This document shows positions 5,894 to 60,170 of a stretch of 64,000 nucleotides of DNA, in pieces. The stretch comes from Chiloscyllium plagiosum. Taxonomy: Eukaryota. Below the pieces are notes generated by a model. It was not told the origin of the DNA. It saw nothing but the letters and a program-made list of their open reading frames with translations, and searched no databases. The translations under genes were made by a program, and so were the position numbers. The stretch covers positions 28,695,309-28,759,308 of the forward strand of contig NC_057719.1 of assembly GCF_004010195.1 (NCBI RefSeq). Reading direction: 5' to 3'. Each line of letters starts with the position of its first letter. The first letter of the stretch is position 1.

Positions 5894-5964
5894 ATTCCCA
5901 TACCTTGACAGCCAAGTCCAACAACAGGCTACCATTGATGAGCAGATCCAATAGTATATTAGCT

Positions 5965-6170
5965 GTTAAAAATCACACAACACCAGGTTATAGTCCAACA
6001 GGTTTAATTGGAAGCACACTAGCTTTCGGAGCGACGCTCCTTCATCAGGTGATGAAGGAGCATCGCTCCGAAAGCTAGTGTACTTCAAATTAAACCTGTT
6101 GGACTATAACCTGGTGTTGTGTGATTTTTAACTTTGTACACCCCAGTCCAACACCGGCATCTCCGAATCA
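5965..6170. mobile_element. Palindromic non-autonomous Penelope-like element (family B) with twin hammerhead cores
   Basis: 83-bp inverted arms 5965-6047 and 6050-6132 plus a 38-bp one-sided tail; flanked by the direct repeat tatattagctgt (5955-5966 and 6171-6182). Confidence 0.85.
6020..6048 (-). ncRNA. Minimal hammerhead ribozyme motif (intact core)
   Basis: Minus strand reads cac-CUGAUGA-A-GGAGC-GUC-GCUCC-GAAA-GC-UA-gug: full core, 5-bp helix II, palindromic AGCU helix III and 3-bp helix I. Activity untested. Confidence 0.7.
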
Positions 6171-8284
6171 TATATTAGCTGTGTTAGCAAAATATGGCAA
6201 GGAAATGTTTGACAACAAATACCTCCAGAGATCAGCAAAAGCAAATGTCATTACAACATTCCTATACTGCAGTGAGATCTGCACTGCATATCAGCAGTGA
6301 TATGATAGAGAAACTTCATCAGCAATGCTACTGCTGTACCCTCCAGATTCAATGGGAGGACTATAAAACAAACACATATGTCCTTGTTAAAACACAACCA
6401 TTCAGGTACAGCTCCTGCAAGACAAACTACAATGGAGTGGACACCATGTCCAGACAGCTTAGAAGTGTCTCCCCTACCAGGTTCTGAATTCTCAGTTCTC
6501 AAATAATTAACATATCAGGGAAAGTCAAAGGAAACACAACATAGATACTATGAAGCTCTACATAAAGTATGGCAGCATTGACACTAATGGCTGTGAAGCA
6601 CGTATTATTACTTGCTCAAAATAATGTCAACTTATCCAAATGCCTCAATGATGTGACAAAGGAGGAAAGAAAAGGAAGCAATCCTACACTTTTGGACCCA
6701 TTACTTCATAGGATGTCATGCCCGATAAGCTTAAAGATCTTCAGGTCAAGCATCAGCCTGTTCAGCGACATGAAGACACAAAGCAGAAACTCTCAATCTC
6801 AAGAAATTATCCTTGAAATTGAAGATCAGCCAATGGTGCTATTACGTCCTCAATTTTGCTACTTAGTTTCTCCAAACATTAGTTTCAAAAGATAGATCAA
6901 TCTTAAAATGATTTACTTCTGCATGGGACATCATAAATATGCCTCCTCTGGAGACTATTTAATTCTCCTCAACTTTTTATTCTCAGGAGATCAAACTAAT
7001 TTACTACCTCTGGGCTGGGGTGATTTATTAGTTTCTTGTTCTGGCTGTCTTCTCAATAGTTCGAAATTAATTTAAGGTAATTGCTTTCTTTTGCCACAAC
7101 AGCACTTCCTCCACTAGCTTCAAACTTGGTCATCCTCCAGAGTCTGATCCCCCACAAAATTCAAATTAAGATTAAGTCTCACCTGCATTATACATGATGA
7201 ATGGAAAAATGAGTTTATTCCTCAGCTGACAGCTCAGGTCTAGCTAACTAACATCAGCTATCTCCCAGTAACCTGAAGACCACACAAAGTAAAAACTGCA
7301 CCTTATTCATCCTACGAGCACCCGGATAAACTGAAACAAGAGAACCTCCCTAAACTTCTTCCATATTCATGCCAATGTAGCATATTATTCAAACAAACTT
7401 TGAGGTTATTTATTTATCTCCATTTATAATTTCTTCTTTTATTTGAAGTAAATGGATTTTGCAAACTTTCAGGGTTAACTGAATTCTCTTAAACTAATTT
7501 AGCTCTAACTCCCAAAACAACACGTCTCTCTGGACTGCTTTTCTTGCAAGGATTACAGACATCACATCTCCATTTCTTTAGCTGAGTACAACCAACTGCT
7601 ATTTTGTAAACTTACTTTCCAGCTGTGAACTCTTAAGGTGACATGGTCCCAACACTGCAAGCGTAACAGATTTCAAGTTTGTTTTACTTCTATTTATTCC
7701 ATTTTATACTGCTGAACTTGAATTCCAAATATCGAAATTATTTCCTACAACACATGAACCAGATGATCTCAAAAAAGGGGAATATGAGAGGAAAGAAATA
7801 GAAGTATAGCGGATATGGTTAAATTAAGTAGGAAGGAGATTCTCATGGAACTCAAATGCACCGTAGATCAGTTGGGCTGCCCATTTTATTATTTAGTTTT
7901 CATACTTGTATTAAATCCATTGAAACCTTCCAGTCAAATAAAAACATTTATCTTCATTTACTATAACTCCCAGTAATACCATCATTATAATACCAATGTA
8001 TTCAAGGTGCATTTGAGTCCAAAGAATTTGAAATACCTCTCAGGTCCTATTTAAGTCAATGCAAGCAACAATTATAACTCATGTTTGTTCAATAAATATT
8101 AAAAAAACTGGGGAAATCAATTTAGAAAGGCACAGATAATTAAGTCAGTTGGTTTTATCCAGTAACAATAATGTCCTGCAATGTTTTTAACATGCAGGTG
8201 GCTGCTTTTTTTTGATACAATACATTACGGAACAGGAACAGGCCCTTCAGCCCACCAAGCCCATGCCAATTCGTAATCCTTAGT

Positions 8285-8640
8285 TAGAATAGAATTCCTA
8301 CAGTGTGGAAACAGGCCCTTCAGCCCAACAAGTCCTCACTGACCTTCCAAAGAGTAACCTACCCAGACCCATTCCCCTATCCTACTACTTTACATTTTAC
8401 CCTTGACTAATGCACCTAACCTACACATCCCTGAACACTATGGGTAATTTAGCATGGCCAATTTACCTAACCTGCACATCTATGGATTGTGGGAGGAAAT
8501 CGCAGCACCTGTAGGAATCCCACGCAGACATGGGGAGAACGTGCAAACTCCACAAAGACAGTCGCCCGAGGCTGGAATCAAACATGGGTCCCTGGCGCTG
8601 TGAGGCAGCAGTCCTAACCATTGAGCCACCATGCCGCCCC
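8285..8640 (-). mobile_element. HE1-like V-SINE, full length
   Basis: Head gggcggcatggtggctcaatggttaggactgctgcctcacagcgccaggg, V-core, and tail gggcctgtttccacactgtagg. Confidence 0.92.
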
Positions 8641-8859
8641 ATTTAGACTTACTGTAACATAAGAAAATGGTTTGCACTGTGATGATAACTCTGTAAGCAT
8701 CACCTGCTGTGGCTCAAGATTCCCACTATGGCAGAATAGTCTCTGCTTCATTTATTGCAGAGGAAGATAGCAGAACGAGACACTGCCCGTTTCAGTGATC
8801 TATGTTTCCTCACAACCATTTTCTCAGCCAGCTGAGCTTTTCATTTCTCTTCATATACA

Positions 8860-9355
8860 AGGCACATGTCAGGAGCATTATGAAATATTTTCCATCTGTC
8901 CAGATGGATGCAGATCTAACAGCACCCAAGAACTCAACTTCATTCAAATCAAAACAGTGTGCTTGACTGACACAGTATCCACCAAATTCAACATTCATGT
9001 ATTTTATCACCAATGCACAGTGCAAAAGTGTGCATCATCTACCAGATGCACCACAGTAACTCACCAAAGCTCCTTTGGCAGCACTCTCTAAACCCATGCC
9101 TTCTACCACTTAGAAGGTCAAGGGCAGAAGACACCTGAGAACATCCACAGCAAGTCACACATCATCCTTACTTGGAACTATATTAATGGTCCTTCACCAT
9201 TGCTGGGTCAAAATCCTGGAACTTCACTCCTAACAGTACTGTGTTGTCCCTACACCTAAAGGACTATAGCAGTTCAAGAATGCAGTTCACCCACACTTTC
9301 TCCAAGACAATTAATGCTAATCTGTCCAGCAACACTTGTATCCCATAAATTAATA
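8860..9355 (+). mobile_element. 3' remnant of an old CR1-group LINE (same family as 14445-16450 and 17780-20600)
   Basis: Aligns to the reverse complement of 17780-18210 (gggtcaaaatcctggaacttcactcctaacagtac…gcagttcaaga). Confidence 0.65.
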
Positions 9356-9389
9356 GCAAACACAATATACGTTAAGAGATGGGAAAGTG

Positions 9390-9772
9390 GGGGTTAGTAG
9401 TTAGTGATAATGCCACTAAACAAGTGGCCCAGGCTAATGCCCCAGGGAGCATGTTGAAATCCTACCACAGCATCTGCTGGAATTTAAAATCAATCAATAA
9501 ATCTAAAATACAAAAACTATTCACAATAATAGCGACCATAAAAGTATCATTGTTAATGCAAAACTCATCTGGTTCATCAGTATCTTCTAGAGAATGGACT
9601 CTGCTGTCCTTACCTGGGTTTGGGCTACATGTAGCTCCAGACTCTCATCAATATGCTTGATTCTTAACTCCCTCTGAAATGGCCCAGCGAACCAATCAGT
9701 TCAAAGGAAATTTAGGAAAGGAAACAAAGGCTAGTCATGCCAATGATACTCACATCCCATGAAAGAATAAAA
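9390..9772 (+). mobile_element. tRNA-headed SINE-like element, family unassigned
   Basis: B-box-like gttgaaatcc, core aaaactcatctggttca shared with 14622-14640, and 3' end cacatcccatgaaagaataaaa. Confidence 0.65.
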
Positions 9773-9904
9773 GTACTGTGATATAGTGTTTAATCTTGAG
9801 ATATTAGTCACGAATTTAAAGGATGCGTTGTTTCTATAATGACAGCATTATAGCTTGTCACATGCAATGTATTATTCTGTTGGCAAAATGGAAATGTGGA
9901 AATC

Positions 9905-10140
9905 TCGGGTCACAGTGGGTCACATCCTCTGGGCCAGAAGCTCTGGGTTTGAGTCTCACTACAGGATTTGATGGCAATGGAAGGTCTGTTTATAACACCA
10001 CCAAACAGACTGATTGTCAACCTGCAAATCCTTTCAACATACTTAGACAGTAAGAGCGGATGGAATAGCCATTCTTGATACAGAGTGGCACCCCTCAAGC
10101 TGTAGCCTCTGGTTTTAGCCTTGTGACATATTCCAGGAAA
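9905..10140 (+). mobile_element. Possible old tRNA-derived SINE
   Basis: A-box and B-box-like head (tcacagtggg…ctctgggccagaagctctgggtttgagtctcact); the body was not recognised. Confidence 0.4.
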
Positions 10141-10612
10141 AACAAGATACAGCAAACAAATGAAAGCACGTACTTTGCTTGGCGCATGAAGCGCCACACA
10201 TGGGAAATTTTCTTAGACTATAGAAGAAACATGTACAAATTCTAATTCCTCTTTTAAGGCTACATGGTATAATATTCTATATTTTGAGGTCAATTATAAG
10301 CTCATTCCTTACACATTTACCAAGATTTGTTAGAGAATAATGATTTTTCTGCAGATTTATTAATAATTGCAATATCTTAATGGCTCAAGTTTCTCTAGGT
10401 TGGCAGGTGCTCATGGATTTCTCTCAAAAGTCACAAAACTAGTAGCAAATCTCTAGCTTTACTTCCCCTTGCTTCCTACTTAAAAAATGATGCTCACTGC
10501 TTGTTCTGACTACAAAACCTTGAGAATGTACTCAAAAATAAAAGGAAACCAGATAATGTTTGAGAATGTTTTAACATATCTGATGCCTCTCAAATACGTT
10601 TTAATAGTAATA

Positions 10613-11153
10613 CAGTGGTGCCTCAGAATCGGAATTTAATTCATTCCAGGAAGCTGTTCAGATTCTGAAACTATTTTCCCCATAAGAAATAATGGAAATA
10701 ATCCAGTTTCTGGACCCAAAAAAAATCTTCAAGACACTTTTAACTGCAAATACACATGATTAAGGTAAAATGAGTAAATGACCTAAATATCAAGTAATAA
10801 TAATAAAAGCAAGAAATAAATGTACTAACATGAAAATAACTTCATTTACCTTGGTGAGGAGTGCTAATGGTGAATGCACTTATTTGCTTCACTGCTCTTC
10901 TTGGGTGCCATGGTGAATGCACAAGGATGATAATTTTAAAAAACAGCACAAATCAAGGTGAAAACACGAGGTAAACTAGTGATGGACACACGAGAGATGC
11001 TTTCACGACTCCTTCCCGGGACAAACTGAACAAACAATGTGCGACTTGAACAGTACATGGTGTTCGGATTCTCGGGCAAAATTTTCTCAAAATAAGTGTT
11101 CGGATTTCAAGTTGTTCGAACAATAGGGCGTTCGGATTCCGGGGTCACCACTG
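10613..11153. mobile_element. Tigger/pogo-like (Tc1-mariner) non-autonomous DNA transposon
   Basis: TA|cagtggtg-cctcagaatcggaa … ttcggattccggggtcaccactg|TA: about 23-bp imperfect TIRs with TA duplication. Subterminal ttcggatt repeats and a vestigial minus-strand start MAPKK near 10900. Confidence 0.85.
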
Positions 11154-11389
11154 TACTTGCTCAGGAGAAACAAACTGATGTTGAAATATTTCCATTATAC
11201 ACATTTTTAAGAAGTAGTTGAGAGGAAAATTTCACTTTTGGTCAATATAATAGTGATATTTGGAGGGCTATGAGAAAAAGGCAAGAGAGTAGGATTAGCT
11301 GAGATGCTCTTGGCAAGAGGTAGCACATGCACAGCTGGTTGAATGACTTCCTTCTGCATTATTGCCAATCTTTTATTCTACAATTACAC

Positions 11390-11676
11390 TGGATGGCACG
11401 TTCGCCCAGTGGTTACCACTGCTGCCTCACAGTGCCAGGGACCCGGGTTCAACTCCCGCCTCGGGCAACTGTCTGTGTGGAGTTGGCACATTCTCCCCGT
11501 GTCTGCGTGGGTTTCTTCCCACAGTCCAAAGATGTGCAGGTTAGGTGAATTGGCCATGCTAAATTGCCCATAGTTTTAGGTGTAGGAGAATGGGTCTGGG
11601 TGGCTTGCTCTTTGGAGGGTCGGTATGGATTTGTTGGGTCGAAGGGCCTGTTTCCACACTGTAGGGAATCTAATCT
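11390..11676 (+). mobile_element. HE1-like V-SINE
   Basis: tggcacgttcgcccagtggttaccactgctgcctcacagtgccagggacccgggttcaactccc head, V-core and aatctaatct tail. Confidence 0.92.
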
Positions 11677-11943
11677 ATACACCTGAAATTTACTCAAAAC
11701 TTGCTGCTTCTTTTCTATGAGGGGTTTAGCTACATGGGAGACCAATTGTAGCTCACTACTGCTTAAGCTTGATTGCTGGCTCTCTCAGTTAGTCTAAGTA
11801 AAAGGGAATCTAATCTATACACCTGAAATTTACTCAAAACTTGCTGCTTCTTTTCTATGAGGGGTTTAGCTACATGGGAGACCAATTGTAGCCTACTACT
11901 GTTTAAGCTTGATTGCTGGCTCTCTCAGTTAGTCTAAGTAAAA
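11663..11943 (+). repeat. 140-bp tandem duplication
   Basis: 11663-11802 is repeated at 11803-11942 with about 3 mismatches. Confidence 0.95.
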
Positions 11944-13224
11944 GCCAGACCAAATCTCAAAAAACAAAAACACTTTGAAAAGGTAGAAAGCCCTTTAAGT
12001 TATTAAATTTTGATAATTTTCAGGTGGGCAAAATATACTATACAGGTGGGATTTACACATGTTTTGCAGTGTTTAACTAAGTTACGCATATTTAATCAAC
12101 ACAGGTGGATGAGGGCAAGGAGAAATTTATATGATGGTTTTCAACTAATAGAGCAAGCATGTGTGGCAGCTGCAACAGAACTGTTCAGCAGAATGTTTTA
12201 GGGAGTCAAGAGGGCACATTTAAGGTATCAAAATAGTTGCCACCAACAAACGAGCATTAACTTGCTCCCAGTTTACACAAAATTTGAAAATTAAAATAAT
12301 TGATAAAACTGTATTTTAGTCCACCAACTGTACACTATTCGGCATGTTTACCTAGAACACATTTTCCTAATCATATCCCTATCACAAAACAACAGATGCA
12401 TGAAAAACTTTGTTATGATCTCAGCTGAAGTTATCACAGGCAAATCCGATCCTATATCAGATGCGCATAAGACCAGAAAATGGAGGAGCAGAAGGCCATT
12501 CAGCCCATTGAGTCTGCTCCATCATTCAATGAGATCATGACTGATCTGATCATTCTTGACTATACTTGTCTGTTTTTCCCCCCATAGCCCTCAATTCCCT
12601 TACTGATTAAAAATCTATCTCAACCTTGAATATACTTAACAACTGAATCTCATGTCAGATACAGATCCAACTGCAACTGAGACTTCTGCAAACCTGAAAC
12701 CAATGATTATTATCCCTTAGCCAAAAAAATTCTGGAACCTTTTAGCTGATAGCTAATGTTTCCTCTGTTTGTAAAACTCAATGAAAACAAAATGCCATCA
12801 CTCAAAGTCTCTCTCATACTCTCTCATATTTTTTAAATCATCATGGCTACAAAAATACTGACAAGTTACCCATTAAACCCATTTATAAACACAGACTAAA
12901 CCCATATACCAGTGGTGCTAAATCCAAACTCTAAAATAAACATTATTAAGTTACACATAAATCATATACTTTACATCACAACACATCTGTAAAGTTTTCT
13001 TCAAATCTACATGGTATCGTTCTGATGTGCTTTCTGTCACAGGGATCCAAATGCACACAGTATTCTGCTGTGATCTAACCAATGTCACTTCTAAATTCTT
13101 CACTTTGTTTTTATACTTAAATGTCTTCATATGGATAACTCACATTTAATTTTATTTTGCTCAAATACCTCTCTTTTGGGCCAGTTTCTTTGAGTTACGT
13201 TGGCATTTCCTGTTTAGAATAATA

Positions 13225-25569: not shown

Positions 25570-26940
25570 AAGTGAATGACAAGATTATTCAGTAACAATA
25601 TCATCATTTTGCTGATGACTGAGAGTAGTCTGGTAGGGCAACAATTGGTCAGATATAATGTATCCTCCATTTTTCTGACAGGCCATTCCTGGACAATTAA
25701 TTCTGTCCATTAACTGTATTGGAACTGCTTTGTTAGAGGCATGGCTAGAGAAGTAGTGGTCAGCATTATATGTGATAGAGCCTTCGTTACGTCCAATGTT
25801 CTCAGCTGTTTCTTGATGTTAAATGGAGTGAATCAAATTTGGCTGAGGTTTGGTATGTGTTATTGTGGGGAACCCAGAGAGAGGTTCAAATTAATCAATC
25901 ACACAGCATTTTTGGCAGAAGACAGTTGCAAACACGTCAACCCTGTTTTTTTCCCCTGAGAGTAAAATTTGTGGTGAAATACACCTGTTACTTCAGTTAC
26001 CCTTTGGCACTTTGTTAATTTCAATTTTTGGAGCTGCAAGATCTGCTCTAAAACCATAAAACTCACAGTCCTGTCTTCTCCATTGGGATGTATCTCAAGA
26101 CTATGTGGTAGTCATACCATTCATCTGCAGCATGCAGATTGGTTAGAAAGAGCTCAATAGATTTTGTCCTTGTGTTGGATCAGTCATCACCTGTTTATGT
26201 AGAGTATGGTAGCTATGCCCCTTCAAGACTCAGCCAATTCAATCAATAATGTTGCTACCAAGCCAATTTTGGTGATGGACGCTGAAGACTCATCAAGAGT
26301 GTAATCTGTGCTCTTCATCCTCAGTGCTTCTTTCAAGTGCTGTTCAACATAAGGTAATACTGATTCTTCAGCTGAGGGAGGAATGGTAGCTGATCAGCAG
26401 GAGATTTCCTTGTCCATGTTTACCTGATGCAAGGAGACTTCAATCGGTGCAGAGTCAATATTGAGAACTTCCAAGCTACTCTCTCCTGACTGTATACCTT
26501 GCCTCAGGCGACTGACTGTGTGGAGTTTGCACATTCTCCCCGTGTCTGCGTGGGTTTCCTCTGGGTGCTCCGGTTTCCTCCCACAGTCCAAAGATGTGCA
26601 GGTCAGGTGAATTGGCCATGCTAAATTGCCCATAATGTTAGGTAAGGGGTAAAGGTAGGGATATGGGTGGGTTACGCTTCGGCGGGGCGGTGTGGACGTG
26701 TTGGGCCAAAGGGCCTGTTTCCACACTGTAAGTAATCTAATCTTGCACTGCCACATCTGTTGGTCTATCCTCCCACTGTATGACTATGTCAGACTGTTGC
26801 TTGACTCATCAGTGGAACAGATATCCTAATTTTCATATAGTTTCCCAGATTTTGGCAAGACAGATATGCAAGGTTCATGGGGCTGTCTTTTTGGAACCTA
26901 GGTCAATGTCAGGTCTCCCATTAGTTTTATTCTAATACAG
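25570..26940 (-). mobile_element. Old LINE remnant (inverted homolog of 14850-16450)
   Basis: tatgactatgtcagactgttgcttgactc is the reverse complement of gagtagtcaagcaacagcctgacatggtcac at about 14927. Confidence 0.6.
26501..26742 (+). mobile_element. HE1-like V-SINE, 5'-truncated young copy
   Basis: Near-identical to the reverse complement of 39847-40070. Confidence 0.92.
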
Positions 26941-27870: not shown

Positions 27871-28156
27871 AGGTTAGGTGCATTAGTCAAGGGTAAATAT
27901 AGGAGAAGGGCTGAAGAAGGGCTTATGCCCGAAACGTCGATTCTCCTGCTCCTTGGATGCTGCCTGACCTGCTGCGCTTTTCCAGCAACACATTTTTCAG
28001 CTCAGATCTCCAGCATCTGCAGTCCTCACTTTCTCCTGGTAAATATACAGGATAACAGGGTAGGGGAATGGGTCTGGGTGGGTTACTCTTTGGAGGGTCA
28101 GTGTGGACTTGTTGGGCCAAAGGGCCTGTTTCCAAACTGTAGGGATTCTATGATTC
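27871..28156 (+). mobile_element. HE1-like SINE 3' fragment interrupted by a family A element
   Basis: aggttaggtgcattagtcaagggtaaa…gggtaggggaatgggtctgggtgg…gggcctgtttcc matches the reverse complement of 8290-8425. Confidence 0.8.
27902..28037 (+). mobile_element. Short non-coding Penelope-derived element (family A) with an intact hammerhead core at 27911-27938
   Basis: CTGAAGA-A-GGGC-TTAT-GCCC-GAAA-CG-TC; 10-bp TSD ggtaaatata (27892-27901 and 28038-28047). Confidence 0.85.
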
Positions 28157-30024: not shown

Positions 30025-30311
30025 ACATCAATTCACAGAAGACATTCTGAGTCTAAAAGCAATTTCTTTTTCCAGGTGTGCTAAGTTTTTCTCCCCCTAA
30101 ACAGTAGATAATGGATATTAATTAGAACTTCAAATCTTTTATAAATGTGTTTTTAGAACATAGAACATAGAAGAATACAGCGCACATCAATTCACAGAAG
30201 ACATTCTGAGTCTAAAAGCAATTTCTTTTTCCAGGTGTGCTAAGTTTTTCTCCCCCTAAACAGTAGATAATGGATAATTAGAACTTCAAATCTTTTATAA
30301 ATGTGTTTTTA
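30025..30311 (+). repeat. About 130-bp direct duplication bracketing a 28-bp inverted CR1 tail
   Basis: 30025-30155 matches 30184-30311 (one 3-bp indel); the spacer is gaacatagaacatagaagaatacagcgc. Confidence 0.95.
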
Positions 30312-33929: not shown

Positions 33930-34620
33930 TTTAAATTGGTAATAATTTCATTCCGAATCAGAAAGTTGTGGATTCAAGTCCAACTCCTAAATTTGAGTAC
34001 AATATCCTAACTGTCACTCTAGTGCGTTATTAAGGAAATGCCACACTGCTGAAGGTGCCACATTTTGCATGAAACATTAAATTAAGGGTCCCTCTGCCTC
34101 TCACATTGGCATAAAAGATTCTTGGCACTATTTCAAACAGCAGCAAGAGTCCTGAGCAATATTCATCAATCAACATCATAAAAATATTATCCGATAATTA
34201 GCTGGTCTACATTACTGTTTGTATTAGCTCGAGCACAATTTGGCTGCCATGTTTCCTAACAATACATCAGTGACTACATTTCATAAGTAAATAAATGCAA
34301 AGTACTACAGATGCTGGAGATCTGAAATAAAAGCAGGAAGTGCTGGAGAAACTCAGAGTCTGGCATAACCTGTACAGAGAAACAAGATTAGCATTTTGAG
34401 TCCAGTATGACTCTTCTTCAGAAGTTCACAAGGAGTTCCAAAGAACAGTCATGCTGGACTTGAAATGTTAGCTTTCTTTATCAATCCACAGATGTTGACT
34501 GATCTCCTAAATTCCACCAGGACTTTGTTTTTATTTCAAAACTACTTCATTAGTTGTAAAATGCTACGAACATTGCTACGAACAACACTATTGAAAAGGA
34601 ATTTTTAATTTTCTTTTCCC
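33930..34620 (+). mobile_element. Deu-domain SINE interrupted near its tail by a palindromic element
   Basis: Core gaaggtgcc…gaaacattaaattaagggtccctctgcctctcac…aaaagattcttggcactatttc; the tail resumes at about 34539 (actacttcattagttgtaaaatgct). Confidence 0.75.
34293..34538. mobile_element. Old palindromic Penelope-derived element (family D) with two decayed hammerhead cores
   Basis: Inverted arms (tgaaataaaa…ctggagaa and ttccaccag…tttttatttca). Minus core CTGAAGA-A-GAGTC-ATACTG-GACTC-aAAA at 34391-34421; plus core at 34438-34470. Confidence 0.65.
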
Positions 34621-39684: not shown

Positions 39685-39763
39685 GATGTGGCATGAGAAG
39701 TTTTCATTTGTGTAAATTGGTAGGATGTGGCATGAGAAGTTTTCATTTGTGTAAATTGGTAGG
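39685..39763 (+). repeat. 39-bp perfect tandem duplication
   Basis: gatgtggcatgagaagttttcatttgtgtaaattggtag occurs twice. Confidence 0.95.
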
Positions 39764-39794
39764 CAGGCAACCCTCCTTTTCTGCAATTTGATAT

Positions 39795-40139
39795 GATTAG
39801 ATTAGATTAGATTAGATTAGATTAGATTAGATTAGATTAGATTAGAGTGTGGAAACAGGCCCTTCGGCCCAACAAGTCCACACCGACCCGCCGAAGCGCA
39901 ACCCACCCATACCCCTACATTTACCCCTTACCTAACACTACGGGCAATTTAGTATGGCCAATTCACCTGACCTGCACATCTTTGGACTGTGGGAGGAAAC
40001 CGGAGCACCCGGAGGAAACCCACGCAGACACGGGGAGAACGTGCAAACTCCACACAGTCAGTCGCCTGAGTCGGGAATTGAACCCGGGTCTCTGGCACTG
40101 CGAGGCAGCAGTGCTAACCACTGTGCCACCGTGCCGCCC
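39795..40139 (-). mobile_element. Young full-length HE1-like V-SINE with an expanded (TCTAA)n tail
   Basis: CpG-rich head gggcggcacggtggcacagtggttagcactgctgcc; about 10 GATTA units at 39795-39846. Confidence 0.95.
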
Positions 40140-45334: not shown

Positions 45335-46760
45335 GAAACAGGAGCATTCAGCTCCTTGAGCCTGTTCTCCCTTCAATAAGATCACGGACGACCAGTTTGT
45401 GTTTTGAGTTCCACATCTACCTCCAATAATCCTTGATTCCCATGCCAAAAAAGAATCTCTCTACCTCCTGCCTTTAAAATATTCCATGACCCAGTTTCCA
45501 ATTCCTGAATATTACAAAATCACACAGCCCTCAAAAAAATTTTTCATCTCAGTCCGAAAAGGCTAACATCTAATTTTCAAACAGTGCCACTTAATGTTGA
45601 ACTTAACCACAAGAAGGAACATGTTTCCCACATCCACTTTGTCAGGACCAATCATGATCTTATATACTTCAGTTAAGCTAACTTGCGTTCTTCTAAACAC
45701 CCAGCCCAGCCATTACAACCTATCCTCATAAGACCATTCACTCCGTTTCACTATTAATCTAGTAAACATCCTCTGAACTACCTCCAACACATTTATGCCC
45801 TTGCTTAAATCAGGAGACCAAAACTGCATTAGCTATTCATGATGTGGTCTTACTAATACCCTATATAACTGACACATAACAGCTTTACTTTTACAGTCAA
45901 TTCCTCTCATAATAAAAGGATAGAATTCCATTCCTGAAGAAGGGCTTATGCCCGAAACGTCGATTCTCCTGTTCCTTAATGCTGCCTGACCTGCTGCACT
46001 TTTCCAGCAACACATTTTTAAGCTCTGATCTCCAGCATCTGCAGTCCTCACTTTCTCCTCGAATTCCATTAGCCTGCTTAATCATGTACTATACCTGCAA
46101 ATTAACACATTGTGACAGCTAAAATCCTCTGTATCTCAGATTTCCACAATCTTTCTGTTTAAATACTACACTATTTCTTCCATCCTTCCTGACAAAGTGA
46201 ACAACTTCACACTTTCCCACATTATATTCCATCTGCCAGATTGCTGACCACTCACTCAACCTGTCAATTCATCTACAAAGTCCTTGTGTCTTCTTCATAA
46301 CATACTTTCCTATCTATCTTTCTGTCATCTGCAAATTGAGCTACAATACTTTTGTTTCCCTCATTCAAGCTATTGATACAAACAATAAAAAGTGAACCTA
46401 GCACAAAGCTGTCAGGCCTCCACTTGTCACACCCTGCTAATCAGGGCATAAACCCATTTACACACACTGTTTTCTGCCAGACAGCCAATCTGCTATCCAT
46501 ATTAATATGCTATGCATACATCATGAGCATTTATTTTCCCCAAAACAATGGCTACTCATCCCAATTACCTCAAAATTTTTCAACTGTGCAGTTATAATCC
46601 CTTAAAATTATCAATTCTAACATTTTACCTACCAGAGCATCAGGCTAACTGGCCTATAGTTTTCTGTCTGCCCCCCCCCCCCCAAATATATTCATGACTT
46701 TCTGGTATGATGGAACCTTTCCTGAAGTGAGGAAATTTTGTAAAATTAACTCCAACACTA
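45335..46760 (-). mobile_element. Old CR1 LINE remnant
   Basis: QLYRVLVRPH in ORF 45833-46069; tgtcatctgcaaatt is the reverse complement of FADD. Confidence 0.75.
45933..46060 (+). mobile_element. Short Penelope-derived element (family A) with an intact hammerhead core at 45934-45961
   Basis: CTGAAGA-A-GGGC-TTAT-GCCC-GAAA-CG-TC; 10-bp TSD gaattccatt (45923-45932 and 46061-46070). Confidence 0.85.
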
Positions 46761-46779
46761 CTTCAAATTACCATCTCAA

Positions 46780-47270: not shown

Positions 47271-47548
47271 CGTCTTAATAATCACCTGGCTAATGTAAGC
47301 AATCTATTTTTTATAATGCATGTCAATACTTTACATATACTAATGAGCAGTTAGTTGCCGAAGTCAGATTTGGGGCTTTCTTTAAATGTAGGAACTGTAT
47401 TAAAACTCACCAGCAAACAGTTATTTTTGTTTAAGGTACGGGATTTGTTAATTATCTCTCTGATATTCTTCAGCAACTTTAAATATACATCTGCATTCAA
47501 AGATTTGCTGCATCTGCGTATGTCATATGATTTACGATCTATACGTAC

Positions 47549-47689
47549 CAGATCATCAATAAGGGCCTTTTTATTTTTCTTTTTTGCCAACTGTTGCATT
47601 TGTTCTTCCTTCAGAAAAAGCATACGTTTTTGATCACTCTCCTGCCGTTCAAATTCTAAAGCTTCTTCCAAGTCTTCCTGCTCCCGGCT
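47549..47689 (-). CDS. MNAT1: MNAT1 coding exon (equivalent to human exon 5), coiled-coil region
   Basis: Minus-strand translation [47 protein letters not shown] closely matches human MAT1 [47 protein letters not shown] (recalled). Acceptor ttctattttag|AGC, donor CTG|gtacgt; 141 nt, phase 0/0. Confidence 0.96.
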
Positions 47690-48254: not shown

Positions 48255-49910
48255 TGTAGAACCGCAGGAGATGGGAGAGGTTCTCAATGAATATTTCTCC
48301 TCTATGTTTATCATGGAGAAAGACATGAAGACTTGGGAATTTGGAGAAATTAGTGGTGATGTCTTGGAACAGTCTACATCACAGTAGAAGAGGTGTTGGA
48401 TGTATTAGAATGTATGAAGGTGGATAAATCTTCTGGTCCTGACCAGACATATCCAAGAACGTTGCAAGAGGCTAAAGAGGAATTGCAGGGGTCATGGCTG
48501 ATATTTTTGCATCATCGTTAGCCACAGGTGAGATCTCAGAAGACTGCAAGGTAGCAAATATTGTGCCATTATTCAAGAAGGGCTGCAAAGAAAAGCCTGG
48601 GAACTACAGACCAGTAAGCTTAATATCTGTGGTGGGTAAGTTACTGGAGAAGATTCCGAGAGACAAGATGTACATGCATTTGGAAAGACAGGGTTTGATT
48701 TGGAGTAGTCAGCATGGCATTTTGAATGGGCGATCATGCCTCACAAATTTGTTAGAGTTCTTTGATGAAGAGACTAGGAAGGTTGACAAGGGCAGGGCGG
48801 TAGGCTTGGTCTAAATGGTGTAGGTATAAGTGAGAACTGGAGATGCTGGAGACTAGAGTCTAGATTAGAATGGTGCTGGAAAAGCACAGCAGGTCAGGCA
48901 GCATCCGAGGAGCAGGAAAATCAAACTTCAGGCAAAAGCCCTTCATCAGGAATGACAGAATCTTGGTCTAAATGGATTTCAGTAAGGCCTTTGATAAGAT
49001 TCCATATGGTAGGCTGCTCTGGAAGATTAGATCACATGGAATCCAGAGATAGCTGGCAAATTGGATACAAAATTGCCTTGATATTAGGAAGCACAGGATA
49101 ATAGTGGAAGAATGCTTGTTGGATTGGAGGCCTGTGACTAGTGGAGTGCCTCAGGGGTTGGTGCTGGGCCCGTTACTGTTTGTTATCTCCATCAATGATT
49201 TGGATGAAATGTACAAGGCATGATTAGTAAGTTTGCTGATGACACTAAAATAGGCAGTACAGTATCATGTACAGTGAGGAAGGTCAGCAGAAATTGCAGC
49301 AGGACCTTGATCAGCTGGGGAAGTGGGCAGAGAAATGACAAATGGAGTTTAATAGAGATAAGTGTGAGGTCTTGCATTTTGGAAAGACAAATCAAAGTAG
49401 GAGTTTCATGGTGAATGGTAGGGCCCTAAGGAGTGTAGTAGAACAGAGGGACCTTGGAGTTCAGATTCACAGTTCTCCAAAAGTGGAGTCACAGGTAGAC
49501 AGGGCAGGGAAGAAGGCTTTTGGCACACTGGCCTTCAATGGCATTGAATGCAGAAGTTGGGAAGTTATGTTGCAGTTATACAGGATGTTGGTCAGGCTGT
49601 ACTTGGAGTATTGTCTTCAGTTTGGTCATCTTGTTATAGGAAGGATGTTATTAAACTGGAAAGACTGCAGAAGAAATTTACAAGGACGTTGCCTGGACTT
49701 AATGGTCTGAGTTATAGGGAGAGATTGGACAAGCTAGGATTTTTTTCTTAAGAGCATAGGAGACTGAGGGGGAATCTTATTGAAGTGGTTAAGGTCATGA
49801 GAGGTATGGATAGGGAGAATGCACTCAGTCTTTTTCCCAGGGTTGGGGAATCAAGAACTAGAGGGCATCAGTTTAAGGTAAGAGGGGAAAAAAATAATGG
49901 AGTAACCTTT
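48255..49910 (+). mobile_element. CR1 (HER1-like) ORF2 fragment, 3' end cut off at the Penelope junction
   Basis: PGNYRPVSLISVVGKLLE, QHG…SCLTNL and SKFADDTK motifs in successive frames. Confidence 0.93.
48819..48961 (-). mobile_element. Family A short element with a decayed hammerhead core (48922-48949)
   Basis: Minus strand reads CTGATGA-A-GGGC-TTTT-GCCT-GAAG-TTTG; 14-bp TSD cttggtctaaatgg (48805-48818 and 48962-48975). Confidence 0.85.
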
Positions 49911-50620
49911 TTCCTGTTTGTCCTATATAGTGTTTTGTGCAGTCCTTGCATGGTATTTTGTACACTACATTAGTTTTGGTCATGTTGGGTATCGGGTCCT
50001 TCGTTCTGGTGAGTTGTTGTCTGAGCGTGGCTGTTGGTTTGTATCTTTATGAGGCACAAACCAACAGCCACACTCAGACAACTCACCAGAATGAAGGACC
50101 CGATACCCAACATGAGCAAAACTAATGTAGTGTACAAAATACCATGCAAGGACTGCACAAAACACTATATAGGACAAACAGGAAGACAGCTAACAATCCG
50201 CATACATGAACATCAACTAGCCACGAAACGACACGACCAGCTATCCTTAGTAGCCACACACGCAGACAACAAGCAACATGAATTCGACTGGGACAACATT
50301 ACTATCATAGGGCAAGCCAGACAGAGAACAGCCAGGGAATTCCTAGAGGCATGGCATTCATCCACAAACTCCATCAACAAACACATCGACCTGGACCCAA
50401 TATACCAACCACTACAGCGGACAGCTGAAACAGACAACCGGAAGCGGCAGGGACAGACCACTATAAACACCGGAGGAAACATCAAAGAAGTGCTTCGCAG
50501 GAGGCTCCCAAGCACTGATGATGTCGCCTAGCCAGGGGACGAAACGTTTGCAACAAAAACTTCCAGCTCGGCGAACAGAACCATAGCAACGAGCACCCGA
50601 GCTACAAATCTTCGCACAAA
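49911..50620 (+). mobile_element. Penelope-like element 3' end (GIY-YIG endonuclease) with a 5' inverted duplication
   Basis: ORF 50034-50531 contains NVVYKIPCKDCTKHYIGQTGRQLTIRIHEH…REFLEAW…IN; 49911-50042 is the inverted copy of 50056-50184. Confidence 0.93.
50515..50548 (+). ncRNA. Penelope-associated minimal hammerhead ribozyme motif (family C)
   Basis: gca-CTGATGA-T-GTCgCC-tagcca-GGgGAC-GAAA-CG-TT-tgc: full core, helix II with one mismatch, ACGU helix III and gca/ugc helix I. Confidence 0.7.
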
Positions 50621-53250: not shown

Positions 53251-53574
53251 CAGACAATGGAAGTAGAAATATGGAGGTAGAAATGCGCAATCCTAGTGAT
53301 TGGAATGAAGTGAGGCTTTGAGCTTAGAATCAAAAAATGCATTGAATTTAATGTACTGGAAAGTTCAGCAGCCAGAAAAGGGAATAGAATCACATCTGTG
53401 ATGTAAAGATTTCCAGCGTCAGTTCTACATAATAGATGTTACACCCTCATCTAAAGAGTATTATATAGAATATAAAATCCTTCATGACTTCATGTTCTCT
53501 AAACATTTCTCCTATACTTTCGTGTTCCTCAAAATGTTGATAGTATAGACAGCAATTCCCCAGTCTTCAACTAT

Positions 53575-56013
53575 ATAATCAGGTTCTGGTCAAGAATAAG
53601 AACGAATCATACTTTAGACTGAGACAATTGGGATCAAATGAATCTCTTGAAGAATATAAAGAGTGTAGGTGCATTCTTAAGAAGACAATCAAAAGGGCCA
53701 AAAATGGATATGAGATATCCTTGGCAAATAAGGTTAAGGATAATCCAAACAAATTCTATAAATACATTAAGAGCAAAAGAGTAACTAGGCAGAGAATAGG
53801 GCCCTTTAAAGATCAACTAGGTCATCTCTGTGTTGATCCTCAGGAAATGGGAGAAATACTAAACAAATAGTTCATGACAATTTTTACAGTGGAGGAAAAA
53901 ATGGAGGCTAGAGAACACAGGGAAATAATTATTGATGTATGAAAATAGTTCACATTACAGAAGAGGAAGTGCTGGAAGTTTTAGATAACATGAAGGTGGA
54001 TAAATCTCCAGGACCTGATCAAGTGTATCCCAAGGTGTTGTAGGAAGTCAGAGTAGAAATTGCGGGCCCATATAGCAGAGATATTTATATCATCCATAAC
54101 CACAGGTGAGATGCTGGAAGACTGGAGAATGGTGAATGTTGTGCCTTTATTTAAGAAAGGCTGTAAGATAAGCCTGGGAGCTATGGACCTGGGAGTCAGA
54201 CGTTGGTGGTGGGTAAGTTGTTGGATGATAGGATTTACATCCATTTGGACTTCAGTAAAGCCTTTGACAAAGTTCCACATGGTAGACTAGTTAGTGAAGT
54301 TAGATCACACGAGATTCAGGAAGAGCCTGCCAATTGGATACAAAATTGGCTTTTCAGTAGGAGACAGAGAGTGGTGGTGGGAATGTTGTTTTTTGGGCCT
54401 GTGACTGGTGGTGTTCTGCAGGAATAGGTACTGGATCCACTTTTGTTTATCATTTATAGAAATGACTTTAGGAGACATGGTTAGTAAGTTTGCAGATGAT
54501 ATTGAAATTGGGGTATTATGGATAGTGAAGAAGATTATATAGATTACAAAGAGATCTTTGTCAATTGGGCCAATGGGCTGAGGAGCAGCAGATGGAGGTT
54601 AATTTGGGTAAATGTGACATGTTGCATTTTGGTAAAACAAGCAGGAGTAGGACTTATACAGTTAATGATAGGGCCCTGGTAATGTTGTAGAATAGAGACC
54701 TAGCGGTTCAGGTACATAATTCTTTGAAATTTGTGTCGCATATAGACAAGGTAGTTAAGAAGGCATTCATTGCTCAGACCTTTGAATATAAGAGCTGCAA
54801 TGTTCTGTTGAGGATGGTGAGGCCTCTACTGGAGTATTGTGTACAGTTCTGGTTCCCCTGCCATAGAAAGGATATTACTAAATTGGAGAGCGTTCAGAGA
54901 AGATTTACAAGGATGTTGCCAGAAATGGAAGGTTTGAGCTATAAAGATAGGCTGAATAGGCTGGAACGTCTTTCACTGTATCATAGGAGTTTGAGGGGTA
55001 ACCTTCAAGAGGTTTATAAAATCATGAGGGGCATACAAATGGCAGGAGTTTTTTTTCCTAAGGTGGGGGAGTTCAAAACCAGGGCGGGGGGCATATTTTT
55101 AAGGCAAGAGGAGAAAGGTTTAAAAAGGACATGAAGGGCAACTTTTTGTTTACACAAAGGGTGGTTCGTATATGGAAGGAACTGCCTGATGCAGTTACAT
55201 CGAACATTACAGAGCAGTACAGGCCCTTCGGCCCTCGATATTGCGCCGACCAGTGGAACCAATCTAAAGCCCATCTATCCTACACCATTCCATTTTCATG
55301 CATACGCTTATCCAATGGCCATTTAAATGCTCTTAAAGTTGGCAAGTCTACTACTGTTGCAGGCAGGGCATTCCATGCTGCTACTACTCTGATTAAAGAA
55401 ACTACCTATGACATCTGTCCTATATCTATCACCCCTCAATTTAAAGCTATGTCCCCTCGAGCTAGCCATCACCATTTAAGAAAAAAGACTTTCACTGTCC
55501 ACCCTATCTAATCCTCTGATTATCTTTTTTGTCTGAATTAAGTCTCTTCTCAAGCTTCTCCTCTCTAATGAAAACAGCCTCAAGTCCCTCAGCCTTCCCT
55601 CCATATCAAGCAACATCCTACTAAATTGCCTCTGAACCCTTTCCAAAGCTTCCACATCCTTCCTATAATGCGGTGACCAGAACTATACACAATACTCCAA
55701 GTGCGGCCGCACTAGAGTTTTAGAGCATGAGCTCGTGGCTCTGAAATTCAATCCCTCTATCAATAAAAAAAACACGCTGTATGCCTTTGTAACAATCCTA
55801 TCAACCTGGATGGCAACTTTCAGGGACTTATACAGATCTATAAAGGGATCAATACAGTTACAACATTTAAAAGACATCTGGATAAGTACATGAATATGAA
55901 ACATTTGGAGGGATATGGGCCAAACACAGGCAAGTGGGACTCGTTTCATTTGGGAATATGGTCAGCGTGGACTAGTCGGATAGAAGGGTCTGTTTCTACA
56001 CTGTATGACTCTG
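53575..56013 (+). mobile_element. CR1 ORF2 fragment whose 3' end (about 55850-56013) is displaced by an antisense CR1
   Basis: NPNKFYKYIK, LDFSKAFDKVPH and EYCVQFW; cagttaca is repeated on both sides of the insert. Confidence 0.9.
55200..55848 (-). mobile_element. CR1 3' fragment (second subfamily) nested antisense
   Basis: Reverse complement of about 58750-59410 (TLVRPHLEYCV; tail gtactgctctgtaatgttc). Confidence 0.88.
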
Positions 56014-59000
56014 AGTCTGCTCAGAAGGGAAGCGGGGATAGGAGCAGAGCATTAGTCATTGGAGATTCCATTGTTAGGGGGACAGGCAGGAGGTTCTGTG
56101 GGAACGAGAGAGACTCATAGTTGGTGTGTTGCCTCCCAGGTGCCAGGGTTCATGATGTCTCTGATCATGTTTTTGGGTTCCTTTGGGCGGGGGGGAAAGA
56201 GCAGTCCCAAGTTGTGGTCCATATAGGCCCTAAGAACATAAGGAAAGGGAGCTGGGGGAAACTTAGTGCTAGAACAAACAGAGTTGTTATCTCTGGTTTG
56301 TTACCCATGCCAGGTGCTAGCGAGGCAAGGAATAGGGAAAGAGAAGAGTTGAACACACACCTACAGGGATGGTGCAGGAGGGAGGGTTTCAGATACCTGG
56401 ATAATTGGGGCTCATTCTGGGGTAGATGGGATCTCTACAAACGGGATGATCTACACCTGAACCAGACAGGTACCAATATCCTGGGGGGAAAACTTGCTAA
56501 TGCTCTTCAGGAGGGTTTAAACTGATTCAGCAGGGGGATGGGAACCTAAATTGTAGTTCCAGTGTCCTGGAGATTGAGAGTATTGAGGTCAGAAATATGT
56601 TTCAAGGTCGCAAGAGTGCACTGGCAAGCAGGAAGATTGGTTTGAAGTGTGTCTACAAATAAGGTGGGTGAACTTGCAGCATGGGTTGGTACCCTGAGGC
56701 TTCAATGTTGTGGCCATTGCAGAGGCATGGAGAGAGCAGGGACAGGAATGGTCGTTGCAGGTTCCAGGATGTAGATGTTTCAATAAGAACAGAGAAGATG
56801 GTAAAAGAAGGGGAGGTGTGGCATTGTTAGTCAAGGACAGTATTACGGTGGCAGAAAGGACATTTGAGGACTCGTCTACTAAGGTAGTATAAGCGAAGGT
56901 TAGAAACAGGAAAGGAGCAATTACCCAATTGGGAGTTTCCTATAGGCCTCCGAAAAAGAGGTAGAGAAGAGGATAGAAAAGATGATTCTGGATAGGAGCG
57001 AGAGCAACAGGGTAGCTGTTATGGGGGACTTTAACTTTCCAAATATTGACTGGAAATACTATAGTTCGAATATTTTAGATGGGTCAGTTTTTGTCCAATG
57101 TGTGCAGGAAGGTTTCCTGACACAGTATGTAGGTTAACAAGAGGCAAGGCCACATTGGATTTGGTACTGGGTAAAGAATCCAACCAGGTGTTAGATTTCA
57201 AGGTATGTGAGCACTTTGGAGATAGTGATCACAATTCGGTTATGTTTACTTTAGCGATGGAAGGGGGATAGGTATATACCGCAGGGCAAAAGTTATAGCA
57301 ATTATGGTGTGATCAGGCAAGCTTTAGGATGCTTAGGATGGGGAAGAAAACTGCAAGGTATGGGCACAATTGAAATGTGGAGCATATTCAAGGAACAGCT
57401 AATGCGTGTCCTTGCTAAGTATGTACCCGTCAGGCAGGGAGGAAGTGGTTGAACGAGGGAGCTGTGCTTTACTGAAGAAGTTGAATCTCTTGTCAAGAGG
57501 AAGAAGGCCACTTATGTTAGGTTGAGAAGTGAAGGCTCAGTTAGGGCGCTCGAGAGTTATAAGCTAGCTAGGAAAGACCGAAAGAGAGAACTAAGAAGAG
57601 CCAGGAGGGGACATGAGAAGACGTTAGCAGATAGAATCAAGGAAAACCTTAAAGCTTCCTATAGATATATCAGGAAGAATGACGAGAGTAAGATTAGGGC
57701 CAATCAAGGACAGTAGTGGGAAGTTGTGTGTGGAGTCCGAGGAGATAGGAGAAGCGTTAAATTAATACTTTCCGTCACTGGAAAAAGACAACGTAGTCAA
57801 GGAGAATACTGAGATACAAGCGACTAGACTAGATGGGATTGAGGTTCACAAGGAGGAGGTGTTAGCAATTCTGGAAAGTGTGACAATAGATAAGGCCCCT
57901 GGGCAAATTGGGATTTATCCTAGGCTTCTCTGGAAAGCCAGGGAGGAGATTGCAGAGGCTTTGGCTTTGATCTTTATATCATCATTGTCTACAGGAATAG
58001 TGCCAGAAGGCTGGAGGATAGCAAATGTTTTCCCCTTGTTCAAGAAGGGGAGGAGAGACAACCCTGGTAATTATAGATCAACTTACTCAGTAGTGGCTAA
58101 AGTGTTGGAAAAGATGTAGAATTTACAATCATTTAGAGATGAATAAGTTGATCAGGGATAGTCAACACGGTTTTGTGAAGGATAGGTTGCGCCTCACAAA
58201 CCTCATTGAGTTCTTTGAGAAGGTGACTAAACAGGTGGATGAGGGGAAAGCGGTGGATGTGGTGTATATAGATTTCAGCAAGATGTTTGATAAGATTCCC
58301 TAATAGGTTTTTGTACAAAATACGGAGGCATGGGATTGAGGGTGATTTAGCAGTTTGGATCAGAAATTGGCTAGCTGCAAGAAAAGAGAGGGTGGTGGTT
58401 GATGGGAAAAGTTCATCCTGGAGTTCAGTTACTTGTGGTGTACCACAAGGATCTGTTTTGGGGCCACTGCTATTGTCATTTTTATAAATAACCTGGTTGA
58501 GGGCATAGAAGGATGGGTTAATAAATTTGCGGATGACACTAAAGTCAGTGGAGTTGTGGATAGTGCCGAAGGATATTGCAGGTTACAGAGGGACATAGAT
58601 AAGCTGCAGAGCTGGGATGAGAGGTGGCAAACGGGGTTTAATGTGGAAAACTGTGAGGTGATTCGTTTTGGAAGGAGCACAAGGAATAAAGAATATTGGG
58701 CTCATGGTAAGATTCCTGGTAGTGTGGATGAGCAGAGAGATCTCAGTATCCATGAACACAGATCCCTGAAAGTTGCCACCCAGGTTGATAGGGTTAAGAT
58801 GGCATACAGTGTGTTAGCTTTTATTGGTAAAGGGATTGAGTTTCAAAGCCATGAGGTCATGTTGCAGCTGTACAAAACTCTGGTGCGGCCGCAATTGGAG
58901 CATTGCGTATCGTTCTGGTCACCGCATCATAGGAAGCAGGTGGAAGCTCTGGAAAAGGTTCAGAGGTTATTTACTAGGATGTTACCTGGTATGGATTGAA

Positions 59001-59411
59001 GGTCTTATGAGGAAAGGCTGAGAGACTTGAGGCTGTTTTTGTTAGAGAGAAGAGGGTTGAGAAGTTACCTAATTGAGACATATAAGATAATGAGAGGTTT
59101 GGAAGGGTGGACAGTGAGAGACTTTTTCCTCAGATGGTGATGGCTAGCATGAGGGGACATAGCTTTAAATTGAGGGGTAATAGATAAAGGACAGATGTCA
59201 GAGATAGCTTCTTTACTCAGAGAATAGTAGGGGTGTGGAGCGCCCTGCCTGTAACAGTAGTAGTCTCACCAACTTTAAGAGCATTTAAATGGTCATTGGA
59301 CAAACATCCGGATGAAACTGGAATAGTGTAGGATTGATAGGCTTCAGATTGGTTCCACAGGTCAGCTCAACATTGAGGGCCAAAGGGCAGTACTGCGCTG
59401 TAATGTTCTAG
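56014..59411 (+). mobile_element. CR1 LINE with ORF1 SGNH-esterase and the full ORF2 span, inactive
   Basis: LVIGDSIVRG, CCLPGARV, DDLHLN (esterase); GGVALLV, GDFNF, SDHN (endonuclease); NKFADDTK (RT); tail gcgctgtaatgttcta. Confidence 0.95.
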
Positions 59412-60040
59412 GAGTCTATTTTCTTAAGTGTCTAATCTTCATGCGAGAATCAATTCAAACCCAGCATCTATGCTTGATACACATTCAACAAGCGTAACTG
59501 AATAGTGATTTATGTGCAAGATTGCAGGTTTTTTTCCCTTCATTACTTTAAGATACAAGACTAGTTAACTCTGACAGATCACCAGAATGCAAACATATAG
59601 CATTATTAAATTGCATGGCTCAGTACTACACCAAGCATTGAGTTTAGATCGGCTCCAAAAAAGCACATGTTAATAACTGTTCTAAAATATTTTATGAAGT
59701 AATTTTATATTTTTAACTGAAGTACTGTAATTACTCCCACACACGATAGTTTAGATATTTTAATAATACAGCATCCAAAACAATAACATTATAGAAAAAG
59801 AGAGCAATTTTTCCTTCATTAAGGCATAATGTATGCTCAAATTTTATGATGATTAAATTATGCACATTTGTGCACAAGTTTAACTTGAGAAAATACCTAG
59901 AATGAAAATAAAATAAAAATAATCACAGAAATACTTCATAAACTCTATAACATTGAGAGATATTAGAATTTTAAAAATAATCTGCAATTTAGATTAGATT
60001 TATGCCAGTATTTTAAAATACTCAACACTTTATATAGTGT

Positions 60041-60170
60041 GAAAGTGAGGACTACAGACGCTGGAGACTAGAGTCGAGTGTGTGCTGCTGGAAAAGCTGA
60101 GCAAGTCAGGCAGCATCCGAGGGGCAGGAGAGTCGGTGTTTCGGGCAAAAGCCCTTCATCAGCCCTTTCC
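60041..60170 (-). mobile_element. Family A short element with a mutated hammerhead core (60135-60162)
   Basis: Minus strand reads CTGATGA-A-GGGC-TTTT-GCCC-GAAA-CACC (GUC site lost); imperfect flanking repeat ttatatagtg/ttatataatg. Confidence 0.8.

Follow-up and report, generated by a model that had tools for sequence, protein, structure and literature searches.

We analyzed a 64,000-nucleotide stretch of the Chiloscyllium plagiosum genome (contig NC_057719.1, positions 28,695,309 to 28,759,308; hereafter the window) in which short insertions carry minimal hammerhead ribozymes. Our analysis showed that these stubs are very likely the end modules, each a pseudo-long terminal repeat (pLTR) with a tail, of coding Penelope-like retrotransposons, and that the short pieces were likely copied from the front end of an uncut and probably capped RNA and are likely dead on arrival. 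The basis for this reading is that the same module follows reverse transcriptase (RT) and GIY-YIG endonuclease sequence and also precedes the frame start in long copies.

Linkage to coding Penelope-like elements

The insertions fall into families A to D, and copies of families A and B extend upstream into coding sequence. Those of A do so by variable lengths, passing through a long 3' untranslated region (UTR) to the C-terminus of a GIY-YIG endonuclease (loci L040 and L058) and on to the RT, while those of B extend into the endonuclease, a CxxC linker, and the RT (L073). Reciprocal tests gave the same picture: a B core lies downstream on the same strand in 24/30 loci selected by B RT sequence, and an A core lies downstream in 24/30 loci selected by A endonuclease sequence. 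At the other end of the element, the end module stands, at least in part, directly before the frame start of family B in 29/30 loci chosen by that frame start. One full unit of 3.4 kb (L358), bounded by 10-bp duplications, consists of a tail-less inverted arm, pLTR, frame start, RT, an assembly gap, 3' UTR, and a pLTR with tail. The short elements are identical in sequence to the ends of coding elements, and two earlier proposals, that they resemble Penelope pLTRs and that Penelope RT and GIY-YIG mobilize them, are supported.

Protein-level support is modest. Pfam RVT_1 matched with E values of 2.5e-4 and 6.6e-5, both under the cut-off, and the GIY-YIG domain of B scored 22.7 bits against a cut-off of 22.6. 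The A and B endonucleases aligned at 32% (E 2e-16), and the closest Atlas clusters carry HTH_animal, RVT_1, and GIY-YIG; a PDB search with the RT fragment returned nothing relevant. The endonuclease of family D within the window, the only coding domain linked to the D end module, matched Pfam GIY-YIG at E 0.018, below the cut-off, and the 3' end of this family is represented by 30 genomic copies that are 98-99% identical; D appears to be a young Poseidon-like element. A cysteine linker between RT and endonuclease occurs in the A and B translations and is absent before the D endonuclease. Judged by such motifs, on which the clade names rest, A, B, and C would be Neptune-type and D Penelope/Poseidon-like. 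Family C shares its body and tail with B, its copies are about 76-83% identical, and at L155 a decayed endonuclease of Neptune type precedes one C-type copy by 423 nt; C is an old relative of B. We also noted a fifth, older Poseidon-like family (E) that is related to D and has a helix II of 6-7 pairs (L198:2108, L179, L176, L166, and L222), and two D copies (L137 and L142) with short tandem amplification of an endonuclease segment inside the 5' inverted part.

Hammerhead cores in the window and in the genome

Nine hammerhead motifs had originally been predicted in the window. Hammerhead-derived sequence is present at all 9/9 of these places at the predicted coordinates, but only 4/9 are intact by our strict descriptor (CUGANGA, a helix II of at least 3 pairs, GAAA, NN, and UH), namely those at 6020(-), 27911(+), 45934(+), and 50515(+) (Table 1). 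Thirty dinucleotide shuffles of the window yielded a mean of 0.17 strict cores and a maximum of 1. The other five sites are decayed hammerhead homologues, the losses being C3, G12, A15.1, U16.1, or the 5' box: C3 has become G at the inversion joint of 6049(+), GAAG replaces GAAA at 48922(-), U16.1 is absent at 60135(-), G12 is lost at 34391(-) with decay of C-G to C-A, and the 5' box has decayed at 34438(+). Together, the nine sites make up seven insertions (one of A, four B stubs, and one each of C and D), five of which are flanked by clear target duplications of 7-14 bp. The early estimate of about one carrier per 9 kb therefore holds for the window, and the four families that had been proposed are not independent of one another, as B and C have a common body and tail.

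Of the 11 Rfam matches in the window at E values up to 5, none was to a hammerhead family, as is expected for cores that lack helix III. MicroRNA matches from the scan at 6002-6095 and 50008-50087 were rejected, being palindromes of the insertions with scores far under the gathering thresholds. Tandem Repeats Finder detected no hammerhead arrays in the window.

For a wider view we used a genome sample of 80 fixed-position 10-kb stretches on large contigs (780,336 bases without N), which contained 59 strict cores, compared with 1-6 in five shuffles. Their anatomy is that of Penelope-type minimal hammerheads, as had been anticipated. An extra base follows A9 in 57/59 cores, and helix III is a loopless palindrome (15.2-16.2) in 36/59, with CA or TG, the decay products of CpG, in 21 of the other 23. 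The G10.1-C11.1 pair is G-C in 40/59 and G-U in 16/59. Helix I lies outside the descriptor, and its first two pairs are Watson-Crick in 45/59 and 51/59 cores; these pairs differ per family (C-G, A-U, or U-A), and related copies inflate the shuffle test. Helices I and II covary among the strict cores.

The expectation of a very large genomic count was confirmed by exact-pattern counts in the whole assembly, which gave 87,506 for B and 17,087 for A (104,593 cores in the two families, against 0 for control patterns). The sample predicts exact counts well, with 21 exact B cores found and 19 expected. A homology search of the sample returned 242 hits in about 175 insertions, covering 21,274 bases or about 2.7% of the sampled DNA, a density of one insertion per 4.5 kb. 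Extrapolated to the whole genome, the number of strict cores would be about 270,000 and that of insertions about 800,000; gaps in the assembly and the restriction of the sample to large contigs make these figures rough. The perfect cores (104,593 or more) and the insertions (some 800,000 by extrapolation) make this genome a natural archive of great size for Penelope insertion, whose mechanism is still poorly understood.

Insertion architecture and 5' ends

Head-to-head pairs account for 67/175 sample insertions, although some of the widest pairs may be due to chance. No head-to-tail arrays were found in the window or among the 242 sample hits, only rare one-off partial tandems. The mirror arm ends by position 96 of 127 in 35/38 B pairs and by position 94 of 124 in 21/21 A pairs, and so is without the last 35-40 nt; the shorter arm is the mirror by definition, yet the ends cluster at 80-94. 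A missing tail in the inverted copy has been reported as the tail signature of Penelope-like elements (PMC3846280, PMC8557442). Duplications of at least 8 bp flank 37/126 short inserts, compared with 2.9% of controls, and the 5' joints and inversion centres vary from copy to copy.

The 5' ends are concentrated at the leading edge of the ribozyme. The core start is included in 60/86 B main copies, and only 1/86 begins within positions 27-31, where cleavage would place the start. Where a copy ends exactly 4 nt before C3, the adjoining outer base is G in 7/9 non-inverted cases; among 5,033 exact genome-wide matches with this end, the first 100 have G in 68, against an expected share of 26% (p 2e-18), although the element itself has C at this position. 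A close look at 30 such copies found G in 20. This G is often common to the target duplication or possibly to the mirror arm, and is clearly in neither at five loci (4/13 inverted loci and 1/17 others). The start sites fit the initiator consensus BBCA+1BW. In L1, an untemplated G is interpreted as a copy of the cap (PMC9341517), and an internal promoter is known from the pLTR of fly Penelope (PMC2377424). The extra G in the present copies likewise suggests a capped RNA start. If it is a copied cap, it would fix the RNA start, identify uncut RNA as the template in the animal, and explain why stubs are so common.

Some B stubs (L001-L030, and window positions 27902-27910 and 60163-60171) open with a purine-rich stretch whose final GGG abuts C3; this leader resembles a partial repeat of the first 11 nt of the core and possibly reflects RT slippage at the template end. 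The AGAAGGG leader common in L001-L030 was dismissed as a product of the query, as it occurs in 0/53 B copies of the unbiased sample. The B tail end (L061:1830-1845) carries a pyrimidine tract and AG about 35 nt before the ATG of the frame, and a similar tract and AG follow the core in family C; these are possible 3' splice sites of a retained intron.

Short and long copies

The original prediction treated the 130-250-bp pieces as separate non-autonomous, retrozyme-like families. We examined 107 core-holding main copies, of which 100 could be classified as long (continuing into the UTR) or short, the other 7 being dropped for gaps, edges, or a poor core. In this unbiased sample, long copies make up 11/22 of A, 18/58 of B, 1/12 of C, and 7/8 of D/E, leaving 40/58 core-holding B copies with no upstream UTR. 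We then placed the short/long label on trees of about 125 columns, built from 56/58 B copies and 22 A rows. The label changes 13 times on the B tree compared with a shuffled mean of 14.9, with 70-79 of 500 shuffles as low, and 9 times on the A tree compared with 7.7. Short and long copies of A and B thus appear to intermingle, with no short-only clades in these alignments, and C alone among the families may include a short-only lineage. Given the identity of the pieces to coding-element ends, their variable upstream extension, the lack of short-only clades and head-to-tail arrays, and starts that lie before the ribozyme rather than at the cut site, we do not retain the proposal of separate families. 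One B stub occurs twice with identical flanks within 4 kb (L332 and L333, at about 3.888 and 3.892 Mb of C1), a local duplication after insertion.

Excess conservation of the core over the element body, a test set beforehand, did not reach significance: divergence among copies was 4.7% in the core and 6.8% in the body for B (p 0.07, non-diagnostic body sites), and 9.3% and 7.9% for A (p 0.5). In addition, G12 has been lost through CpG loss in 10/21 A copies. Because the core is no better kept than the body and G12 decays, selection would act on master elements and not on the inserts.

Mini-tandems at frame starts

Frame starts are rare, occurring in 1/80 sample stretches. In 18/30 loci chosen by the B frame start, the frame breaks off after 209-476 nt and is followed by a second module, which mostly starts 4 nt before C3, with a joint that differs each time. 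About nine of the 30 loci hold two complete cores in direct orientation, 340-610 nt apart. These mini partial tandems (L297, L301, L302, L304, L308, L310, L311, L313, and L314) share a layout of pLTR, tail, a 210-480-nt frame start, and a second pLTR, and in L301 the two pLTRs share their start base and the accompanying G. Five of the joints fall at a short palindrome in the frame start, close to +227 to +231, and their letters differ from one joint to the next. It is intriguing to consider that the stubs, which number in the hundreds of thousands, record the in vivo life cycle of Penelope, from a capped RNA whose start lies 4 nt ahead of an uncut hammerhead, through internal priming and copying of the cap, to frame jumps, and that mini-units made by such jumps could cut as an intramolecular dimer and circularize, a birth step of animal retrozymes taken independently many times; we put this forward tentatively and hold it to be doubtful as a whole. 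The two-hammerhead mini-tandems provide concrete constructs for testing the origin of retrozymes from Penelope ends.

RNA reads and predicted folds

In raw poly(A) single-cell reads with a related label (run X19), 3,536 of 12,955,460 records match the B module, in both directions. Of these module reads, 92% run on into unlike flanking sequence, and the clipped ends concentrate on the base 4 nt before C3. There is no place where many molecules begin or end, and a poly(A) single-cell library shows cleavage ends poorly and circles not at all. The X19 signal is read-through of genomic copies in host RNA. Runs X19, X6, X1, and X4 contained 0 reads with a splice joint or cut-site end and give no evidence either way.

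The family A insert is predicted to fold into a single hairpin (-141.6 kcal/mol) that buries the core, while the predicted fold at 45934 is weak (-8.2 kcal/mol). Because their cores lie on opposite strands and they fold into a long hairpin, head-to-head inserts cannot dimerize in cis. Within introns, head-to-head copies would form long hairpins in the host pre-mRNA.

Proposed mechanism and alternatives

We propose that transcription would start at an initiator-like site 4 nt (B) or 8 nt (A) before C3. The endonuclease of the element would nick the target, and the RT would prime inside the RNA at both ends of the tail. Priming at the first tail would lead to run-off at the RNA 5' end after about 130 nt, with the cap copied as an extra G; priming of the other target strand at the inner site would produce the tail-less mirror arm, and the small partial tandems would arise by jumps that lead from the 5' end to a point within the reading frame. 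Internal priming at two tail-bounding sites, and uncut RNA as the main substrate, have been shown in vitro for an anole element (PMC11167929). The ribozyme would be under selection in the master elements, as suggested by its covarying helices, and not in inserted copies, and it would cut only as a dimer or with the help of protein. Dimer-cleaving variants were reportedly described by Lunse et al. in 2017.

Several observations weigh against this mechanism or against the reading of the stubs as dead end modules. The downstream core is absent in 6/30 loci of each reciprocal test (some of them gapped), and every long copy seen is frameshifted or gapped, none having an intact full-length frame. 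The trees rest on few columns and are poorly resolved (starred branches 10/53 for B and 1/19 for A), so small self-copying stub lineages could hide in them. For family C, only 1/12 sampled copies is long, and the 30 loci picked by a C query had no long shared upstream sequence. The raw core-versus-body difference for B had p 2e-7 before subfamily-diagnostic sites were removed. Finally, in most non-inverted copies the target duplication ends in this same G, and in several inverted ones the mirror arm could be its source; given such sharing, part of the G excess can be put down to terminal addition or target preference.

The 5' pile-up could mark a structural stop of the RT or of second-strand joining at helix I, in place of the RNA start, with all else as we propose. 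The boundary does coincide with the 5' strand of helix I, the ends scatter over about 0-10 nt, and microhomology with the target is common. Helix I, however, has just 3-5 pairs, predicted folds are weak (as at 45934), and neither the G excess at one position, the shared start of the two L301 pLTRs, nor the match to the initiator consensus fits a stop, making this explanation unlikely in our view. We consider it still less probable that part of the stubs, above all those of old family C, were recopied from their own internal promoter as non-autonomous Penelope partners resembling short interspersed nuclear elements (SINEs). Such partners would account for stubs beginning at the inferred start site and for the high share of stubs (11/12 C copies and 40/58 B copies), and there is precedent both in the internal promoter of fly Penelope (PMC2377424) and in rotifers, where pLTR sequence alone is enough for mobilization in trans (PMC3846280). 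Every B variant seen nevertheless has long members, the stub label is unclustered, the 5' joints and inversion centres differ between copies, and a C-type copy stands behind an endonuclease remnant.

That the pieces are retrozymes, ribozyme-processed monomers that circularize and reinsert, is highly improbable, and for A, B, and D this is already contradicted. Retrozymes have been proposed as derivatives of Penelope pLTRs and detected in one cartilaginous fish (bioRxiv 10.64898/2026.07.22.740005), helices I and II covary here, and about nine of the 30 frame-start loci hold two complete direct cores. Against this, the copies are single or head to head and not in head-to-tail arrays, their ends lie away from the cut site, mirror arms put the cores on opposite strands, and the A hairpin buries its core. 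The cores are also of the minimal type, in contrast to the canonical cores of described metazoan retrozymes (PMC7229834), and the RNA reads are bidirectional, run into flanks in 92% of cases, and show no pile-up of ends.

Other features of the window

The window is largely intronic to MAT1 (CDK-activating kinase assembly factor), with an exon at 47351-47689(-) that matches Pfam PF06391 (E 3e-7, 47354-47689). SINE-like repeats are abundant, as exemplified by the 95% identical pair at 26503-26731 and 39842-40070, and together with CR1/L2-type long interspersed nuclear element (LINE) fragments they occupy a large part of the window, with two of the B stubs lying inside such repeats. Near-perfect local tandem duplications of 140, 93, and 39 bp occur at 11663-11944, 30025-30276, and 39685-39763, and some of these are possibly assembly artefacts. 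The hammerhead-related features are listed in Table 1, including a family B copy at the window start that was absent from the earlier list.

Table 1. Penelope-derived insertions, hammerhead cores, and target duplications in the window.
Feature	Position	Strand	Remarks
Family B copy, 3' part	1..69	+	cut by window start
Family A insertion, 208 bp	5965..6172	both	putative head-to-head end module of Neptune-type Penelope-like element
Family A inverted arm, no tail	5965-6048	-	arms 96% complementary
Family A forward arm, with tail	6050-6172	+	relatives extend to GIY-YIG and RT
Family A target duplication, 12 bp	5955-5966 and 6171-6182
Intact minimal hammerhead core, family A	6020..6048	-	helix II GGAGC/GCUCC, AGCU palindrome
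Family A core, C3 to G	6049..6077	+	at inversion joint
Family B stub with tail	27902..28037	+	intact core 27911-27938; within SINE-like repeat
Target duplication, 10 bp	27892-27901, 28038-28047		of B stub at 27902
Old family C head-to-head insertion	34299..34538	both	two decayed cores; body and tail homologous to those of B
Family C main arm	34299-34421	-
Family C inverted arm	from about 34438	+
Family B stub	45933..46060	+	intact core 45934-45961
Target duplication, 10 bp	45923-45932, 46061-46070		of B stub at 45933
Older family B stub	48819..48961	-	core broken (GAAG); within LINE fragment
Target duplication, 14 bp	48805-48818, 48962-48975		of B stub at 48819
Family D insertion	49911..50620	+	5'-truncated, Poseidon-like, with end module; no target duplication found
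Family D fold-back 5' part	49911 to about 50047
Family D GIY-YIG frame	up to 50531
Intact minimal hammerhead core, family D	50515..50548	+	bulged helix II, ACGU palindrome
Older family B stub	60037..60178	-	core without U16.1
Target duplication, 7 bp	60030-60036, 60179-60185		of B stub at 60037

Comparison with known systems

The system itself is known, and the parts worth testing are the cap signature and the two-hammerhead mini-tandems. In the literature we found no description of these shark families, though entries may exist in Repbase and Dfam, which were outside the search; a single passing mention, for the whale shark, turned up on Penelope in sharks, and nothing on Penelope together with a non-templated G and a cap. 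Minimal hammerheads on Penelope pLTRs, mostly as single copies of truncated elements, were reported by Cervera and De la Pena 2014 (PMC4209133). The cores described here share with those metazoan hammerheads the type I core without a helix III loop, the extra base between 9 and 10.1, G10.1-C11.1, the palindromic 15.2-16.2, the presence of several families per genome, and pairs on opposite strands 100-700 bp apart. The count is different: two families give 104,593 exact cores here, whereas about 4,000 were reported for coelacanth and 9,000 for Xenopus; sharks are unnamed in the parts of that paper considered here.

With the Neptune and Penelope/Poseidon clades of endonuclease-containing Penelope-like elements (PMC3846280, PMC8557442, PMC8969392), these families share a single frame of RT and C-terminal GIY-YIG, the pLTR, an adjacent inverted and 5'-truncated copy, an optional tail of 30-40 bp, target duplications of 8-16 bp, and, in A and B, the CxxC linker. 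Unlike in the accounts of those clades, most insertions here are cut to the last 90-130 nt and have their 5' ends at one spot. The closest biochemical parallel is anole Poseidon (Frangieh et al. 2024, PMC11167929), with which our proposal has in common two internal priming sites bounding the tail, extension of both target strands, uncleaved RNA as substrate, and no RNA-seq ends at the cut site. That study concerns biochemistry, whereas ours reads genome scars, and the parts of the anole account considered here contain neither an extra G nor a 5'-end jump into the frame. Non-LTR retrozymes (PMC7229834; bioRxiv 10.64898/2026.07.22.740005) are likewise non-coding and pLTR-related and carry a type I hammerhead, but they are reported as head-to-tail repeats with a core per unit that give circular RNAs, whereas the stubs of this shark are solo or head to head and identical to the ends of coding elements.

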